From positions 1 through 11,928 of IMG/VR virus record IMGVR_UViG_2585427787_000004: DNA of 11,928 nucleotides; one strand, 5' to 3'. Made by a program: the position numbers and the translations under genes. Shown here in pieces: positions 1,182 through 5,500 of this stretch. The notes beneath the pieces were generated by a model. The model searched no databases. It was given only the letters and a program-made list of their open reading frames with translations, and was not told the DNA's origin. Source of the stretch: a virus (lineage: Duplodnaviria; Heunggongvirae; Uroviricota; Caudoviricetes). Numbering within the stretch: the first letter of the stretch is position 1; every line of letters starts with the position of its first letter.

Positions 1182-1632
1182 TGGTGATGACGAATAAAAT
1201 TTTAAAAACTAGCCTTTTTCCGCGACGCTCCCGCCCCGTGGCAGGCCACCCCACCGGAAGGACCCGCACAAATGAGAGCGTTTGTCATTAACATTTACAG
1301 ATAAGATGACGTACATCATTGAAACGCCATTCAGCCATATACCGGCAGCATTCGTAGTTGCACTCCGTAACTCTGCGACTAAGGTTAAAAACATGGCCCT
1401 CTTTTGCCACCGGCAAATCTTCAATGGATTTCCCCTGCCGGTTTTTTATTTTCGTCGATGCATAACATTGCATTTACATCAATAGCGGCTATTGTCATTA
1501 GTATGTTGCATCAATGCATGGGTGGTATTGGCGGTCTTCGCCGGCCGCTTCTGTGTAGCTGCTCCCTGTGACCGGTTTTTTATTTCTCACATTACAGCAA
1601 CCCCTTAGAGTGAAGGGCTGCTGTAATGCCTG

Positions 1633-2028
1633 TTACTCACGAATCAGGCGAGCACTCTTACTATTCATTTCAATACGCGAATACTGCGGTTTACCATCAA
1701 TGATGTCTGTCATTACGAACACCTCACCCGGCTGCAGTTCAACTGCACCTTCCGGTAATTTCATACCGGCAAATACCGGACAACCCGGATGACGATCATC
1801 TTCTGTTGCTTCCAGCATTGACTCACCAAACCACTCCGTCGTGGCGCGACCATCAGCTGCTTTGTAGTGGATCAAGTACTGGTTTTCGCCATCCGCATAC
1901 TGCGCGCGGGCTTTAACCTCACCCCATTCATCACTGATACGCATCTCCACCAGTTGAGACAACTCAAACTTAAACGGAGCAGCATCAGCACCAATTACAA
2001 TCGGTTTGTTTTCTGTTTTTTCCATCAT
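1633..2028 (-). CDS. Hypothetical acidic protein (131 aa), moron-position gene of unknown function
   Basis: ORF-track frame 1633..2076 trimmed to the tandem ATG ATG at 2028/2025, which is preceded by an AGGAGA Shine-Dalgarno (rev. comp. of 2031-2036). Protein is rich in D/E (MMEKTENKPIVIGADAAPFKFELSQLVEMRISDEWGEV...). No family recognised. Confidence 0.6.
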   Translation of the reverse strand: MMEKTENKPIVIGADAAPFKFELSQLVEMRISDEWGEVKARAQYADGENQYLIHYKAADGRATTEWFGESMLEATEDDRHPGCPVFAGMKLPEGAVELQPGEVFVMTDIIDGKPQYSRIEMNSKSARLIRE

Positions 2029-2199
2029 CGTCTCCTGATATCGAAGCCCGTCGCCGCACCGGGCACTGATCAACATTTGAGTATTCGCGGCGACAGAAAG
2101 AATTTATTTTATTGAGTAGCCACAAACACAGAATTTCATGCTTTCCGGACGCTGACGCACCCTTCATTTTTCAGCAAAATATTCTGCTCTTACAGGCGA

Positions 2200-2382
2200 T
2201 CAGTTCTGCAGACACTGCCGAACACCGTCGACAATTTCACAGACCTGAGACGCGGTATCGAAAAGCTGGCGCGCCTTATCCAGGCTGACGCACCCCACCA
2301 ATAAAAAAGGCACCAGTATCGCTACCAGTGCCCGTTTCACCGCCGTTCGCGGCATTCTGTGTGTCCAGTGTTTTCGCGCCAT
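2200..2382 (-). CDS. Small lipoprotein (signal peptide with lipobox LLVGC, roughly 30-aa Cys-containing mature part)
   Basis: Translation MARKHWTHRMPRTAVKRALVAILVPFLLVGCVSLDKARQLFDTASQVCEIVDGVRQCLQN. ATG at 2382 is preceded by GGTGGTGAT; an internal ATG at 2355 is an alternative start. Lipobox L-V-G-C after a hydrophobic stretch. Confidence 0.55.
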   Translation of the reverse strand: MARKHWTHRMPRTAVKRALVAILVPFLLVGCVSLDKARQLFDTASQVCEIVDGVRQCLQN

Positions 2383-2383
2383 A

Positions 2384-2497
2384 TCACCACCAACGCACAG
2401 CCCAAATCAGAACAGCGACCGCCACAAGGCGAATTGCAAAGGCCGCAGCCCTTGTCAAATCAAGGCTCGCGGGAGTTTCCATTTCAATACCTTTCAT
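2384..2497 (-). CDS. 37-aa peptide with C-terminal hydrophobic helix (MKGIEMETPASLDLTRAAAFAIRLVAVAVLIWAVRWW), below the ORF-track size cutoff
   Basis: Hand-translated from the minus strand. ATG at 2497 preceded by GAGGT Shine-Dalgarno at about 8 nt; stop TGA at 2386..2384, one base before the lipoprotein ATG, suggesting a coupled pair. Confidence 0.3.
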   Translation of the reverse strand: MKGIEMETPASLDLTRAAAFAIRLVAVAVLIWAVRWW

Positions 2498-2587
2498 AAT
2501 GGACAACCTCAAAAAGAATCTTTTATACTTTCCCACGAGGATTTTCTCCGTACTCACTAATCACAATTTCCCCTTTGACGTGAAAAC

Positions 2588-2627
2588 TAAAAACCCCGGA
2601 CTGTTCCCCCAGCCGGGGTTTTGTTTT
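2588..2627. terminator. Bidirectional rho-independent terminator hairpin (CCCCGG-A-CTG / CAG-CCGGGG) flanked by A-run and T-run
   Basis: Stem-loop read from sequence 2594-2618 with TTTTGTTTT on the plus side and AAACTAAAAA before it (U-tract for the minus strand). Located immediately 3' of the endolysin stop. Confidence 0.6.
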
Positions 2628-2629
2628 AC

Positions 2630-3007
2630 TTATCGCTTCAGCTGAAAGTGAGGTCCGTCTTTCAGCGTTTTCCAGTCCCCGCCCCATTCGATAGCGATCC
2701 CCAGCTCTGCGGCAGCCTGCTTAAATGCCTGTGCGATTTTCTCGTACAGAGGCCACTCCCATGACACCTGGCTGCCGATGTAGGCCACAACATCCACCGC
2801 ATCACCGGTCAGGTGGCGGCTGTTCATGGTCTGGCTTTTCCCTTCCGCAACCAGCTGTTTCTGGCGATACTTACTGCGCAGGCCTTCCGTAATACCGAAA
2901 TCAACCTCCGTCAGCTCCAGCGCACGGCGAACTACAGCAACCAGCTGTGGTTTGACACCCTCCAGATTTTTTTCACTGCGACGGCTGAATCTGAATTTAC
3001 CCGGCAT
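2630..3007 (-). CDS. Endolysin, peptidase M15 family (zinc D-Ala-D-Ala carboxypeptidase / L-alanyl-D-glutamate peptidase-like)
   Basis: Translation shows the M15 zinc-ligand pattern: SRHLTGDAVDV (H-x6-D) and C-terminal DGPHFQL histidine. The ORF track begins at a GTG (3013); I prefer the ATG at 3007, which has a GAGGTG Shine-Dalgarno about 5 nt upstream and sits 2 nt after the TGA of the preceding gene. Confidence 0.8.
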   Translation of the reverse strand: MPGKFRFSRRSEKNLEGVKPQLVAVVRRALELTEVDFGITEGLRSKYRQKQLVAEGKSQTMNSRHLTGDAVDVVAYIGSQVSWEWPLYEKIAQAFKQAAAELGIAIEWGGDWKTLKDGPHFQLKR

Positions 3008-3009
3008 AT

Positions 3010-3285
3010 TCACCTCAACAATGGAAAGATTTTTGTGACGTTCCCGCGTGCGTGTATCACCAGCACGCAGAACAGCAGGTTAAAAAACACTTCCAGCCAG
3101 CCCGTTGCTAACGGGCGACCACACAGATAGCTGAGGGGCGCAAAGGCATACAGCAGCATCAGCAGCCAGGCCAGCCATGACACCAGCGGTTTATGTCTGG
3201 AATCACGGCGACGATAAAAAAAGAGCGTCAGCACGATAACCGTGCATAACGCCACATTCAGCAATCCGGGAAGGTTACTTAACAT
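3010..3285 (-). CDS. Lysis-cassette membrane protein (91 aa, 2-3 predicted TM helices); possible second holin or antiholin
   Basis: Hydrophobic translation (LLNVALCTVIVLTLFFY...WLAWLLMLLYAFAPL...FFNLLFCVLVIH); ATG at 3285; tightly packed between the putative holin and the endolysin. Confidence 0.5.
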   Translation of the reverse strand: MLSNLPGLLNVALCTVIVLTLFFYRRRDSRHKPLVSWLAWLLMLLYAFAPLSYLCGRPLATGWLEVFFNLLFCVLVIHARGNVTKIFPLLR

Positions 3286-3667
3286 TGCCGCCTACTCCAC
3301 CCCGCAGGCGGGAGAACACACCGGACACCAGCGATGCAATATCCTGCTGGTGGATGAACGAGAGAATCTTCACCGACACCACCGAGACCAGCACCGCGCA
3401 AAGCGCATCTGCTGATGTACCGTCATACCCTGTTTTTGATGCAATCCAGGCTGACAGCACACGCGCTCCCAGCACGCCGACAATAAACGACACCAGAAAA
3501 TGCGCCACCACGCGCCAGACTGAAAGTGACTGCGGCATCGTTGCCACAAATAACGCCCCGGCGAACGCGCCAAACACAATCCCGAAATCCATCCCGGTAA
3601 ACAGCCCGAATACCGTCGCGCCACCCAGCGCCGCAGCCGTGCCGGAACCGGATAAGGGTTCAGACAT
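3275..3667 (-). CDS. Putative holin (130 aa, three hydrophobic segments)
   Basis: ORF-track frame 3275..3718 trimmed to the ATG at 3667, which is preceded by a strong AGGAGG Shine-Dalgarno (rev. comp. of 3671-3676). Three hydrophobic helices and a charged C-terminus; first gene of the lysis cluster upstream of the endolysin. Confidence 0.55.
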   Translation of the reverse strand: MSEPLSGSGTAAALGGATVFGLFTGMDFGIVFGAFAGALFVATMPQSLSVWRVVAHFLVSFIVGVLGARVLSAWIASKTGYDGTSADALCAVLVSVVSVKILSFIHQQDIASLVSGVFSRLRGGVGGNVK

Positions 3668-3755
3668 ACTTCCTCCTGAAAATAAAAAAAGGGCCACCAG
3701 CGACCCGTAAAAAAACACCCCGTCAAAGGCACCCGCAGATGCCTTTTGTGTGATG

Positions 3756-3908
3756 TTATTCAGATTTACGCAGTAAAGGCCGGAGCACGATCAGCGCCAT
3801 CGCCACCAGCACACCATCTGCCAGCACTGACATCAGTCGTCCGGTGAAATCCACCATCACTACCAGAAACAACAGGATGACAGCCAGCACAAGGCGCGCA
3901 CTTTTCAC
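3756..3908 (-). CDS. Possible 50-aa hydrophobic peptide (GTG start) just upstream of the holin; very tentative
   Basis: Hand-translated minus-strand frame: (GTG) KSARLVLAVILLFLVVMVDFTGRLMSVLADGVLVAMALIVLRPLLRKSE, GGAG about 8 nt upstream of the GTG. Below the ORF-track cutoff; no homology recognised. Confidence 0.2.
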   Translation of the reverse strand: MKSARLVLAVILLFLVVMVDFTGRLMSVLADGVLVAMALIVLRPLLRKSE

Positions 3909-4111
3909 AGGTACTGCTCCAGCGGCAACTGCAGCGCCTGCGCAATTTTCTTCAGTTGCGCTTCTTCTTCCTGACCGATACCGTCCTGGTCAGCGATATC
4001 CAGACACAGACACAGCACATTCACAGTATCATCAGTATCTGCAACATCAGTCAGCTGACGAAGGGCTTCAGCATTAGCAGAACGCGGTGGCGCTTCATAA
4101 CGGGCGCGGAT

Positions 4112-4137
4112 ATGAAAAAGGCCCGCCGAAGCGAGCC
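4112..4137 (-). terminator. Candidate rho-independent terminator after the tRNA cluster (GGCUCGC-UUCG-GCGGGCC followed by U-run on the minus strand)
   Basis: Hairpin read from plus 4120-4137 with A-run at 4115-4119 (U-tract on the minus transcript). Confidence 0.45.
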
Positions 4138-4151
4138 TGGAAAAATAAGCG

Positions 4152-4228
4152 TGGCGCGTTGTACTGGATTCGAACCAGTGACCGATTGCTTAGAAGGCAA
4201 TTGCTCTGTCCGGCTGAGCTAACAACGC
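4152..4228 (-). tRNA. tRNA-Arg (anticodon UCU), phage-encoded
   Basis: Reverse complement folds as a cloverleaf: acceptor GCGTTGT/ACAACGC, D-arm GCTC...GAGC, anticodon stem ATTGC/GCAAT with loop CTTCTAA (anticodon TCT), T-arm ACTGG-TTCGAAT-CCAGT, discriminator G, encoded CCA. Confidence 0.85.
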
Positions 4229-4241
4229 AGGGTACAGATAA

Positions 4242-4318
4242 TGGACCGCCATCGAGGACTCGAACCCCGCGCAACCAGCTTCGAAGGCTGGCGCTCTATC
4301 CTGATGAGCTAATGGCGG
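4242..4318 (-). tRNA. tRNA-Arg (anticodon UCG), phage-encoded
   Basis: Reverse complement: acceptor CCGCCAT/ATGGCGG (perfect 7 bp), D-arm GCTC...GAGC, anticodon stem CCAGC/GCTGG with loop CTTCGAA (anticodon TCG), T-loop TTCGAGT, encoded CCA. Confidence 0.8.
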
Positions 4319-4325
4319 TATGTGA

Positions 4326-4401
4326 TGGTGGCCCTTGCTGGATTTGAACCAGCGACCTGGCGATTATGAGTCGCTCGCTCTCACCACTGAGCTAAAGGGC
4401 C
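4326..4401 (-). tRNA. tRNA-Ile2-like (anticodon CAU; sequence resembles the E. coli lysidine-modified AUA-reading tRNA rather than tRNA-Met)
   Basis: Reverse complement GGCCCTTTAGCTCAGTGGTGAGAGCGAGCGACTCATAATCGCCAGGTCGCTGGTTCAAATCCAGCAAGGGCCACCA closely resembles, as I recall it, the chromosomal tRNA-Ile2 (ileX/ileY); anticodon loop CTCATAA. Confidence 0.8.
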
Positions 4402-4450
4402 GGGAGCAGAATAATAATGGTGCGTAATTAATTCTGCAATCTCATCCGTT

Positions 4451-5500
4451 TCAAACGATTAAATCCTGAACTTCCCTGACTGTCTGTTCAAAACGTCCGG
4501 TCTCCAGCTCAACACCAATCGCACAACGCCCCAGTGCCATCGCCGCTTTTACCGTTGAACCTGAACCCATAAAAAAATCTGCAACCAGGTCTCCCGGACG
4601 ACTGCTCGCGTTGATTATCTGCTGCAGCATTTCTGCCGGTTTTTCGCACGGATGTTTCCCTGGATAGTACTGCACCGGTTTATGCGTCCAGACATCGGTG
4701 TACGGAACCTGCGCCGTCACACCGAAATACCGCCGCAAATTTTTATATTCACTCAGCAGTTCCGTATACTGCCGGTTCAGCTCACTGTATGTGCTGACCA
4801 GCTGGTGGTGTGGCTTTTCCAGTTCCCCGCGCTGATGTTTTTCTGCCGCAACACGCGCAAACAACGCCTGCAATTTATTGTAATCACCCTCGTTCGGTAA
4901 CTGCCACTGACTGGCACCAAACCAGTGCGAAGCCATGTTTTTCTTTCCGGTGGCTTCCGCTATCTGTTTTGACGTTATTCCCAGTGATTTACGCGCATCA
5001 CGAAAGTAAGAAATCAGCGGGGCCATGACGTGCTGTTTTAGCTCGCGCCCCTGCTCCACATAGCCATCATCTTTCGGGCGATACGGTCCCTGATAATGTT
5101 CTGCAAACAGAATGCGCTCTGTTGCCGGAAAATACGCCCGCAGACTTTCCTTATTGCACCCGTTCCAGCGTCCGGACGGCTTCGCCCAGATAATGTGGTT
5201 CAGCACATTAAAGCGCTCACGCATCATGATTTCGGTGTCAGATGCCAGGCGATGACCACAGAACAGGTAAAGACTTCCGGCAGGCTTCAGTACCCGCCAG
5301 AACTGCGCCAGACACTGGTCCAGCCATTTCAGGTAATCATCGTCGCCCTCCCACTGGTTATCCCAGCCCTCGGGCTTCACTTTAAAGTATGGCGGGTCTG
5401 TGACTATCAGATCGACAGAGTTTTCCGGTAAGGTCTGGATAAACTCCAGGCAATCAGCGTTGATTAACTCACAACTGGATATTTTTACAGTATTAATCAT
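4451..5500 (-). CDS. DNA methyltransferase, beta-class amino-methyltransferase (probably N6-adenine); no adjacent restriction endonuclease seen
   Basis: 349-aa ORF. N-terminal catalytic motif IV DPPY (LIVTDPPYF) and C-terminal AdoMet motif I FxGxG (DFFMGSGSTVKAAMALGRCAIGVE); the IV-then-I order defines the beta class. Confidence 0.85.
   Translation of the reverse strand: MINTVKISSCELINADCLEFIQTLPENSVDLIVTDPPYFKVKPEGWDNQWEGDDDYLKWLDQCLAQFWRVLKPAGSLYLFCGHRLASDTEIMMRERFNVLNHIIWAKPSGRWNGCNKESLRAYFPATERILFAEHYQGPYRPKDDGYVEQGRELKQHVMAPLISYFRDARKSLGITSKQIAEATGKKNMASHWFGASQWQLPNEGDYNKLQALFARVAAEKHQRGELEKPHHQLVSTYSELNRQYTELLSEYKNLRRYFGVTAQVPYTDVWTHKPVQYYPGKHPCEKPAEMLQQIINASSRPGDLVADFFMGSGSTVKAAMALGRCAIGVELETGRFEQTVREVQDLIV

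Follow-up and report, generated by a model that had tools for sequence, protein, structure and literature searches.

What do two very small genes, set one nucleotide apart behind a phage endolysin gene, do for the prophage that carries them? They lie in an 11,928-nt stretch of viral DNA, analyzed here as a whole and referred to as the window. The window represents a phiP27-like lambdoid Escherichia coli prophage, with 99.7% identity to a prophage of ETEC H10407 and 93% identity to phiP27. A first-pass annotation had described a hydrophobic peptide of 37 aa followed by a Cys-containing lipoprotein of 60 aa, and had read the two as a coupled unit, with resemblances to type I toxins on the one side and to superinfection-exclusion lipoproteins of the Cor/Llp type on the other. 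From comparison of this locus with its relatives, we argue that they are most likely two separable late genes that end a prophage lysis cassette, rather than a toxin or exclusion pair.

Two genuine genes behind an endolysin

Both small genes and the cassette to which they belong are encoded entirely on the minus strand, in the order holin, holin, M15 endolysin, 37-aa ORF, and 60-aa lipoprotein ORF. The features are as follows.

3275..3718, minus strand: second holin-family protein (Phage_holin_8, 5e-23); the PGAP start gives 130 aa
3010..3285, minus strand: 3-TM holin-family protein (Phage_holin_3_7, 4.7e-21)
2630..3013, minus strand: M15 endolysin of the L-alanyl-D-glutamate peptidase type (Peptidase_M15_4, 7.8e-13; phrog_465, 1.3e-75)
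2581..2622, minus strand: GC-rich hairpin with a U-run, directly after the endolysin stop, at the 5' end of the inserted small-ORF module
2498..2536, minus strand: possible N-terminal extension of the small ORF, GKYKRFFLRLSI, from a GTG start at 2536-2534, with GGAG at 2549-2546, 9 nt upstream
2384..2497, minus strand: 37-aa small ORF, ATG 2497-2495, stop TGA 2386-2384 (phrog_4493, 1.8e-16; WP_001297666.1)
2383..2391, minus strand: GGTGGTGAT, comprising the last two Trp codons, the stop, and the spacer base, which doubles as the lipoprotein Shine-Dalgarno sequence
2200..2382, minus strand: 60-aa prolipoprotein, ATG 2382-2380, stop TGA 2202-2200 (phrog_7528, 1.5e-35)
2303..2332, minus strand: terminator-like hairpin of 11 pairs with a U6 run, GGCACTGGTAGCGATACTGGTGCC TTTTTT, within the signal-peptide coding region of the lipoprotein

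Patterns of substitution confirmed both small ORFs at the positions first assigned to them. For the small ORF, pN/pS was 0.10 in frame compared with 1.5 and 3.1 out of frame, which indicates purifying selection; its N-terminal 16 codons, with a value of 0.02, are the most strongly selected part. The ORF is preceded by GAGG (2510-2507), 9 nt 5' of the ATG. Its product, MKGIEMETPASLDLTRAAAFAIRLVAVAVLIWAVRWW, consists of 16 hydrophilic N-terminal residues followed by a C-terminal transmembrane segment ending in RWW, in agreement with the membrane anchoring originally proposed. PGAP already annotates the 37-aa protein in ETEC H10407 under the accession given above.

The small protein belongs to a family of 37-60 aa membrane proteins, separate from the lipoprotein and represented by the function-unannotated PHROGs 4493 and 1115. 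No Pfam, NCBIfam, or PADLOC family matched it, and extended forms served as query in the homologue searches. One relative of 48 aa (phrog_1115, 1.7e-33) is encoded ~150 nt upstream and is uncoupled. A 50-aa isoform of the window protein, initiated at the GTG, is possible. An ATG, GTG, or TTG is kept at this start position in all relatives, the added residues differ conservatively between subfamilies (KYKRFFLRLS vs KYKRILLRLT), and gene finders often choose 50- and 60-aa forms of the protein. The extension is unproven because its selection signal is weak (pN/pS 0.26 and 0.90).

The lipoprotein gene is likewise under purifying selection, with pN/pS of 0.24 in frame compared with 0.88 and 1.79 out of frame. 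Its 60-aa product, MARKHWTHRMPRTAVKRALVAILVPFLLVGC followed by VSLDKARQLFDTASQVCEIVDGVRQCLQN, has a long basic n-region and an LVGC lipobox with Cys31, Val at +2, and Ser at +3. The mature part is an amphipathic helix of 29-30 residues with conserved Cys48 and Cys57, a net charge of about −1 (not cationic), and a C-terminus (...VRQCLQN) without a hydrophobic segment; AlphaFold2 models the lipoprotein as one long helix, with a pLDDT of 69.5. The lipobox is invariant across 32 aligned homologues, and Asp at +2 is absent in all diverged members among those listed. These features bear out the initial description of a genuine lipoprotein with three Cys and a mature part of about 30 residues. Given Val at +2, the protein would, after export and lipidation at Cys31, be delivered to the outer membrane and reside in its inner leaflet, where the two conserved Cys of the mature helix could give disulfide-linked oligomers.

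PGAP calls the copy in ETEC H10407 (WP_001138287.1) as a protein of 51 aa that starts at an internal Met. We regard the 60-aa form as the real one, because Met10 is not conserved (ATA/ACG in loci L240 and L230) and codons 1-9 are under purifying selection (0.22). The lipoprotein had no match in Pfam (E <= 1), NCBIfam, or PADLOC, and PHROGs returned only its own phrog_7528 plus a chance-level match to an Rz-like PHROG (E = 0.048). A HMMER search with a profile of the lipoprotein alignment against 1.84 billion representative proteins yielded 24 clusters, all of them small lipoproteins of the same family and none linking it to a known family. The PHROG matches over full length (phrog_7528, phrog_4493, and phrog_1115) are all significant and all to function-unannotated groups, and literature searches found no functional work on either the lipoprotein or the small protein.

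Separability and the shared junction

Comparison across loci does not sustain the view of the two genes as a unit. Using the two proteins as queries, we retrieved 147 IMG/VR loci of distinct sequence; wherever the lipoprotein gene is intact in these, it comes last in a holin8-holin3-(M15 or GH108 endolysin) cassette. In approximately 33 distinct loci, a spacer of 14 nt parts the endolysin stop from the lipoprotein ATG, which is served by an AGGTG ribosome-binding site of its own, and there is no small ORF; phiP27 also carries the lipoprotein without the small ORF. The small ORF, for its part, is present in 881 of 5426 E. coli genomes (~16% of complete genomes), including the Stx2 phages of O157 and O104. 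It comes with the 2581-2622 hairpin and is located between the endolysin and either the lipoprotein or Rz/Rz1. This hairpin is kept in every small-ORF module and is absent where the lipoprotein directly follows the endolysin. The module is found behind endolysins of three types and before either of two kinds of gene, and in Stx2 phages the small ORF precedes complete Rz/Rz1 with an identical TGAtATG junction. Each gene recurs in other prophages without the other; the pairing is not constant.

The small-ORF family is dispensable for many cassettes. Judging from its distribution, it is a separate, recombining unit, inserted with its upstream hairpin behind the endolysin and before whichever gene of the outer-membrane step follows. 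We infer that the small protein, which would reside in the inner membrane, assists lysis as an accessory membrane factor without being essential to it. Two small single-pass membrane proteins are precedents for such an extra lysis factor: Lcc6 of LambdaSo, a 65-aa transmembrane protein required for lysis, and the Mu releasin gp25. Lcc6, however, has its transmembrane domain at the N-terminus, and its gene lies far from those for lysis; the likeness of both precedents to the small protein is one of description, with no homology known.

The close spacing of the two genes follows from the junction itself. One spacer base (2383) separates the small-ORF stop from the lipoprotein ATG, and the end of the small ORF, TGG TGG TGA T, forms the sequence that matches the 3' end of 16S rRNA. 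The junction CGTTGGTGGTGA[T/C]ATG was invariant in 12 of 12 junction variants, with either the lipoprotein or Rz as the next gene. Because the ribosome-binding site of the next gene takes in the end of the small ORF, the spacing is 1 nt. Translation of the gene that follows is probably linked in this way to translation of the small ORF, but the arrangement is no mark of a dedicated two-protein system.

The hairpin at 2303-2332 is nearly invariant at the nucleotide level, even where the mature domain of relatives is only ~60% identical, and variability at third codon positions is 0.012 inside it compared with 0.096 elsewhere. A simple consensus scan detected no sigma-70-like promoter upstream of the pair. 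One candidate, in the conserved leader AAGTATAAA, was rejected because it has no −35 element at workable spacing. Rfam, applied to positions 1500-4500, returned tRNAs and sub-threshold noise only, with no match for the leader or the antisense strand, and the GC content of both small genes equals that of the neighboring genes. Both terminator-like hairpins are conserved, and one lies within the lipoprotein ORF; they fit expression only from antiterminated late transcripts, which suggests that both genes are expressed late.

The lipoprotein in the slot of the spanins

Diverged relatives of the lipoprotein (55-65% identity in the mature part) lie directly behind M15 or GH108 endolysins, in cassettes with different holins and with no type II membrane protein nearby. 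We considered the lipoprotein as a specific inhibitor or partner of the M15 endolysin and rejected this idea, since it also follows GH108 endolysins; the holin was rejected as a partner because diverged members stand behind unrelated holins.

Intact lipoprotein genes and Rz/Rz1 were never found together within 3.5 kb. In five distinct Rz/Rz1-bearing Stx-phage loci (10 before identical sequences were collapsed), the lipoprotein is a stop-ridden pseudogene. In a P2-like phage whose M15 endolysin is 80% identical, the slot taken here by the lipoprotein is filled by a canonical i-spanin/o-spanin pair. No spanin is annotated anywhere in the 49 kb of the ETEC prophage, and the lipoprotein is its only credible lipoprotein ORF. 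No i-spanin-type ORF adjoins the lipoprotein in the window, in the loci where it directly follows the endolysin, or in the diverged relatives. Approximately 13% of phages of Gram-negative hosts are without a recognizable spanin. In a survey of Stx phages, Rz was present in 277 of 279 and a metallopeptidase endolysin in two (PMC8136144).

The family has nevertheless been filed among the spanins. Kongari et al. (2018, PMC6139136) listed as the phiP27 "o-spanin" (20706-20861) a protein that belongs to the same family as the window lipoprotein and shares 92% identity with it. In that list of 528 systems, none was shorter than the phiP27 pair with its 62 residues in total, half of which rest on a doubtful i-spanin (Kongari et al. 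2018, PMC6139136). That published i-spanin (20348-20542, TTG start) runs antisense to a conserved 90-aa gene, and its frame is stop-broken in the sole diverged homologue and missing from the window and most loci. These frames were judged by ORF integrity, as synonymous sites for pN/pS were saturated. The published phiP27 "i-spanin" looks like a spurious antisense ORF.

Considered as an o-spanin, the lipoprotein has a lipobox Cys without Asp at +2 and a location after the endolysin in a lysis cassette; it has no adjoining or overlapping i-spanin gene and no combined periplasmic length sufficient to span the periplasm. It resembles lambda Rz1 and other o-spanins in its ~60 aa, its predicted outer-membrane location, its place at the distal end of the cassette, and the conserved Cys of its mature part. 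Unlike them, it is without a credible i-spanin, and its mature part is helical rather than proline-rich and too short: a periplasmic helix of 30 residues cannot bridge the periplasm. The unimolecular spanin gp11 of T1 offers a parallel in one respect, as a single gene provides an outer-membrane lipoprotein anchor in the spanin slot, but our lipoprotein lacks a C-terminal transmembrane domain and has a periplasmic part of 30 residues vs ~90. The only alternative to spanins shown by experiment is, to our knowledge, the disruptin. In phiKT, a phage without spanins, the disruptin gp28 is likewise a small non-spanin protein and is the proposed outer-membrane disruptor (bioRxiv 10.1101/515445). Disruptin, a cationic peptide of antimicrobial type, lacks a lipid anchor, whereas the protein described here is predicted to be lipid-anchored and is unlike disruptin because its mature peptide is not cationic.

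Alternative readings and a candidate lysis step

We put at about an even chance the reading that both ORFs are expressed late and close a lysis cassette of the phiP27 type at its distal end, with the lipoprotein most likely serving the outer-membrane step of lysis and the small ORF being accessory. The lipoprotein would fill the slot of the spanin genes in a prophage without Rz/Rz1 or any other lipoprotein gene, and would most likely perform, or be needed for, the last lysis step at the outer membrane; we infer that it acts by disrupting that membrane. Position alone is no proof of such a role, because the endolysin-terminase slot also accepts true morons, namely, the LT-IIb toxin genes (SerU-LTIIb), the antisense 90-aa gene of phiP27, and an HNH endonuclease.

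The lipoprotein could itself be a moron of lysogenic conversion, an outer-membrane protein expressed in the lysogen that masks a receptor, excludes phage, or aids the host, as Cor, Llp, and Bor do, with the small peptide unrelated or co-expressed. Lambda bor adjoins the lysis genes, and the small size, outer-membrane sorting, and conserved Cys of the lipoprotein would suit such a protein, as would the proven moron slot and the hairpin terminator that parts the module from the endolysin in the window. We consider this reading unlikely. No exclusion or defense family matched, no promoter was found, and base composition does not set the gene apart. Many loci, and diverged relatives as well, have the lipoprotein gene right behind the endolysin stop, where it has a ribosome-binding site of its own and no terminator intervenes. 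The conserved hairpin inside the ORF argues against constitutive expression, and it is precisely in the presence of Rz/Rz1 that the gene has become a pseudogene. Cor (phi80, N15) and Llp (T5), which the first-pass annotation had singled out, are also small phage outer-membrane lipoproteins with Cys, but no family match connects the lipoprotein to Cor, Llp, or Bor, as assessed with Pfam, NCBIfam, PADLOC, and PHROG profiles. The Cor and Llp genes lie among genes for tails or receptor binding, with expression early or in the lysogen, whereas this gene is found at the endolysin 3' end across diverged relatives, away from tail and receptor-binding genes. The Cor/Llp proposal finds no support in these comparisons.

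Bacteriocin release proteins work via activation of OmpLA and have a functional, stable signal peptide. By analogy with these colicin lysis proteins, the lipoprotein, or perhaps its conserved signal peptide, might perturb the envelope and activate OmpLA, leaving the outer membrane leaky late in infection with no membrane fusion. The two share a size class (mature part of ~30 residues, lipobox LVGC), and in both cases the gene closes an operon, 3' of a terminator that is read through; the colicin proteins also make the envelope leaky, and here the signal peptide shows strong conservation of its n-region and h-region. The analogy is nonetheless improbable. Neither Pfam Lysis_col nor any other family matched at E <= 1, conservation of the h-region comes at least partly from the RNA hairpin constraint, and the amphipathic helix with its two conserved Cys (Cys-x8/9-Cys) and the phage context are foreign to that family.

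Poorer still are the prospects of a minimal, non-canonical two-component spanin, in which the small peptide adopts a type I topology (N-out, C-in) and uses its 16 conserved N-terminal residues to pair with the lipoprotein. This topology was raised explicitly by Kongari et al. (2018, PMC6139136) as possible for unrecognized i-spanins. The two genes are adjacent with 1-nt coupling, selection on the 16 N-terminal codons is intense, the transmembrane segment is C-terminal, and the lipoprotein has no other partner. However, the lipoprotein occurs without the peptide in phiP27 and the ~33 distinct loci, the same peptide precedes complete Rz/Rz1 pairs, and the related 48-aa form is encoded at a distance and uncoupled. 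[quoted passage not shown]

A killer peptide of the type I toxin kind, under antisense or leader RNA control, is a scarcely credible reading of the small ORF: the peptide is short and hydrophobic and its leader is structured (z = −2.06), but the ORF is a late-operon gene conserved in lysis cassettes of three types rather than a stand-alone toxin-antitoxin locus, neither leader nor antisense strand matched Rfam, Pfam and NCBIfam gave no similarity to Hok, Ldr, Ibs, Zor, or TisB, and the strongest selection falls on the hydrophilic N-terminal segment.

Returning to a role in lysis, we tentatively suggest a bolder version, in which the lipoprotein family would constitute a third, spanin-independent way to breach the outer membrane, by means of a solo, lipid-anchored, disulfide-capable amphipathic helix of 30 residues, and the small-protein module would be a general modulator of the last lysis step. 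The lipoprotein may then also act as a conserved, slowly processed signal-anchor form in the inner membrane, and the terminator inside its ORF would lock expression to antiterminated late transcripts.

Filed in 2018 as the shortest known two-component spanin, the lipoprotein family appears here without an inner-membrane partner. Over 100 distinct lysis cassettes end with a member of this family, which decays alongside Rz/Rz1; the family is therefore a concrete candidate for a new outer-membrane lysis mechanism. It is directly testable, both in lysogens that should be inducible (phiP27, ETEC H10407) and on the lambda Rz/Rz1 complementation platform. The small protein, found in the lysis cassettes of Stx2 prophages of O157:H7 and O104:H4, could affect lysis timing and toxin release; if the bolder version is true, its module, placed before the lipoprotein or before Rz/Rz1, would modulate the release of both phage and Shiga toxin.

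The lipoprotein gene and its small neighbor

The window is a lambdoid prophage. It shares 99.7% identity with a prophage of ETEC H10407 and 93% with the lysis region of the Stx2e phage phiP27. The first-pass annotation had described a 37-aa ORF followed 1 nt later by a 60-aa lipoprotein gene, and the pair exists on the minus strand as described:

2497-2384, minus strand: small ORF, 37 aa, ATG at 2497, stop codon TGA at 2386-2384, MKGIEMETPASLDLTRAAAFAIRLVAVAVLIWAVRWW
2383: single base between the small-ORF stop and the next ATG
2382-2200, minus strand: lipoprotein gene, 60 aa, ATG at 2382, MARKHWTHRMPRTAVKRALVAILVPFLLVGC followed by VSLDKARQLFDTASQVCEIVDGVRQCLQN

On this strand, three tRNAs and then a DUF3927 miniprotein lead into the lysis genes, which encode a Phage_holin_8 protein, a 3-TM holin, and an M15 endolysin in that order. 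After the endolysin come a U-run hairpin, the small ORF, the lipoprotein gene, an ORF for a 130-aa protein of unknown function, and the small terminase subunit gene. The pair thereby sits exactly where other lysis cassettes carry their spanin genes. The tRNA genes lie in tandem (4155-4401, minus strand) between a DNA methyltransferase gene and the lysis cassette; only two, tRNA-Ile and tRNA-Arg, are listed at this place in the ETEC H10407 annotation, and phiP27 has two tRNAs, then stx2e. The 130/147-aa ORF 3' of the lipoprotein gene (1633-2076, minus strand; phrog_1935, function unknown) has no transmembrane segment and is probably dispensable, given that many related loci carry a truncated or interrupted version.

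Both ORFs are genes, and PGAP already annotates them, as hypothetical proteins. Across distinct nucleotide versions from related loci, pN/pS of the small ORF was 0.10 in the annotated frame versus 1.5 and 3.1 in the other frames (n = 16), and that of the lipoprotein gene was 0.24 versus 0.88 and 1.79 (n = 69). Constraint in the small ORF is strongest in its hydrophilic N-terminal 16 codons (pN/pS 0.02). The window and Stx-phage copies differ at 24 of 111 bases and at five residues, all of them conservative and within the hydrophobic segment. GAGG lies 9 nt 5' of the small-ORF ATG, and the last codons plus spacer (GGTGGTGAT) are complementary to the 3' end of 16S rRNA; the WW terminus therefore doubles as the ribosome-binding site of the next gene.

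PGAP and earlier work place the lipoprotein start at Met10. This codon is ATA or ACG in relatives, and codons 1-9 (2355-2382, minus strand) are under purifying selection (pN/pS 0.22), so the 60-aa form is the true one. The signal-peptide n-region, reaching to about codon 18, is unusually long, basic, and conserved (MxRKHWTHRxPR, with near-invariant residues), a hint that the precursor, or the signal peptide once cleaved, is itself functional. Upstream of the small-ORF ATG is an in-frame GTG (2534-2536, minus strand) with GGAG 9 nt before it, and the corresponding codon can serve as a start in all relatives (ATG, GTG, or TTG). Initiation at GTG 2536 may yield an additional 50-aa form of the small protein with a basic N-terminal extension, and the gene could conceivably have two starts, as holin/antiholin genes do.

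The lipoprotein in lysis cassettes

About 400 related loci were collected from IMG/VR and other collections, and the 147 distinct-sequence loci with complete flanks were classified:

Layout (a), ~33 distinct loci: endolysin stop, 14 nt, lipoprotein ATG with its own AGGTG ribosome-binding site; neither small ORF nor hairpin
Layout (b), ~75 loci, window type: M15 or GH108 endolysin, hairpin, small ORF, lipoprotein
Layout (c), ~35 loci, Stx2 phages of O157:H7 and O104:H4: SAR lysozyme R, hairpin, small ORF, then the same TGAtATG junction into the lambda-type spanin pair Rz/Rz1
Layout (d), including phiP27: antisense 90-aa gene or HNH endonuclease between endolysin and lipoprotein

Among the classified loci, every intact lipoprotein copy is the final gene after the holin(s) and endolysin, and none occurs together with Rz/Rz1. 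A HMMER scan of 1.84 billion representative proteins returned only 24 clusters, all of them 55-70 aa lipoproteins that retain the lipobox and a Cys-x8/9-Cys motif. In the diverged members that could be placed (loci L333, L335, L339, and L409), the lipoprotein gene again begins only a few bases from where an M15 or GH108 endolysin gene ends; the holins upstream differ, and no type II membrane protein is encoded nearby. In a P2-like phage with an 80% identical M15 endolysin, the corresponding slot is taken by a canonical i-spanin/o-spanin pair. In the complete ETEC prophage no spanin is annotated, and a six-frame lipobox scan found this ORF as the sole credible lipoprotein. A survey of Stx phages reported Rz in 277 of 279 and a metallopeptidase endolysin in two (PMC8136144). 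The lipoprotein thus behaves as a lysis-cassette gene.

In Stx phages with Rz/Rz1 (933W-like), the lipoprotein gene persists as a pseudogene broken by several stop codons, ~1.2 kb downstream of the spanin pair (L003 3809-3976, corresponding to phage GER2 46808-46975, and five distinct related loci, ten before merging identical sequences); it is a relic of recombination with phiP27-type cassettes. One locus (L238) has a 162-aa candidate HNH or AP2-type homing endonuclease ORF, judged by its sequence, inserted between the M15 endolysin and lipoprotein genes, which shows this junction to be an insertion hot spot.

The family has been catalogued before. In Kongari et al. 2018, phiP27 is entered as a "separated" two-component spanin whose periplasmic length, 62 residues, is the shortest of any listed, comprising an o-spanin at 20706-20861 and an i-spanin at 20348-20542 (PMC6139136). 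That o-spanin is the phiP27 version of the window lipoprotein. The "i-spanin" ORF (3780-3974 of L002, the phiP27 locus) encodes 64 aa from a TTG start and is antisense to a 90-aa ATG-started gene (L002 3718-3990). In a homologue only 56% identical in DNA, the 90-aa frame is intact and the "i-spanin" frame is broken by a stop; the segment is absent from the window and most loci. The lipoprotein is therefore an o-spanin candidate that in fact lacks a recognizable i-spanin.

The lipobox (LVGC) is textbook, and Val at +2 should direct sorting to the outer membrane. Once exported and lipidated, the 30-residue mature part, which contains two more cysteines, would fold as an amphipathic helix: its hydrophobic positions follow an i, i+3/4, i+7 spacing (L34, A37, L40/F41, A44, V47/C48, V51), AlphaFold2 models a helix with modest confidence, and the phiP27 o-spanin is tabulated as 83% helix (Kongari et al. 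2018, PMC6139136). The conserved Cys48 and Cys57 could form intermolecular disulfides, as in Rz1, or alternatively hold the chain in a helix-turn-helix. The mature peptide has no cationic character. It would act at the inner face of the outer membrane after murein loss, whether alone, via a host protein, or as a colicin lysis protein does.

Expression and the lysogenic-conversion reading

No sigma-70-like promoter was found between the endolysin and the pair, and the conserved leader contains no workable -35/-10 pair. The hairpin 3' of the endolysin has a strong stem followed by U-runs. A second terminator-like hairpin (10-11 bp) with U6 lies inside the signal-peptide coding region (2303-2332, minus strand; codons 17-27, ALVAILVPF); its nucleotides are almost invariant family-wide, even where the mature domain is only ~60% identical, and third-position variability is 0.012 within it versus 0.096 elsewhere in the gene (8-fold lower). 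We infer that both genes would be transcribed by antiterminated late RNA polymerase only, a pattern more in keeping with a harmful late function than with a moron expressed in the lysogen.

It is possible that the lipoprotein is instead a lysogenic-conversion protein, as suggested in the first-pass annotation, which found it compatible with an exclusion or receptor-blocking moron of the Cor/Llp type. The post-endolysin slot is also home to true morons (e.g., LT-IIb genes), but this reading gains no support from family matches, promoters, or base composition, and the GC content of the pair is that of neighboring genes. Phage SerU-LTIIb, whose holin-holin-endolysin cassette is related, carries eltIIbA/B (L252 4942-6368), encoding the type II heat-labile enterotoxin, directly after a GH108 endolysin, the place taken in the window by the small ORF and lipoprotein.

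The small ORF as a mobile cassette member

The small ORF and lipoprotein are not a unit. Conservation of the pair in other prophages was checked, and the genes proved separable: the lipoprotein stands alone in ~33 loci, and the small ORF, kept with the lipoprotein in ~75, precedes Rz/Rz1 in ~35. Given this separability and the short lengths of both proteins, a mini-spanin formed by the two together is unlikely. Nothing supports the earlier suggestion of a type I toxin-like peptide.

The module of hairpin, roughly 90-nt leader, and ORF occurs in 881 of 5426 complete E. coli genomes and represents one allele in a family that recombines. The same slot can also hold a 48-aa form (60 aa when started at an upstream ATG; phrog_1115), usually ~150 nt from the next gene. 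Some loci have both versions as two ORFs in tandem (L251 187-657; the 48-aa-form region of L253). A RAVAFAI-coding segment is repeated there, and a third ORF, in a different frame and coding for a 49-aa transmembrane product, separates the two; the 37-aa allele resembles the product of a deletion between these repeats. The 1-nt coupling is thus a property of the 37-aa allele, which ends within the next gene's ribosome-binding site, rather than the signature of a dedicated two-protein system. Because the family accompanies three types of endolysin and either of two kinds of outer-membrane-step gene, the small protein is not specific to any of them, and many cassettes dispense with it. It probably has an accessory inner-membrane role in the lysis program; Lcc6 of LambdaSo provides a precedent for small transmembrane factors that can matter.

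Together, these findings confirm the observation and support its first-pass interpretation in part. The lipoprotein comes from a family already known as candidate o-spanins, which we reinterpret as a lysis-cassette lipoprotein acting solo, and the small ORF belongs to a widespread, uncharacterized, mobile family of lysis-cassette membrane proteins. The pair is experimentally tractable.
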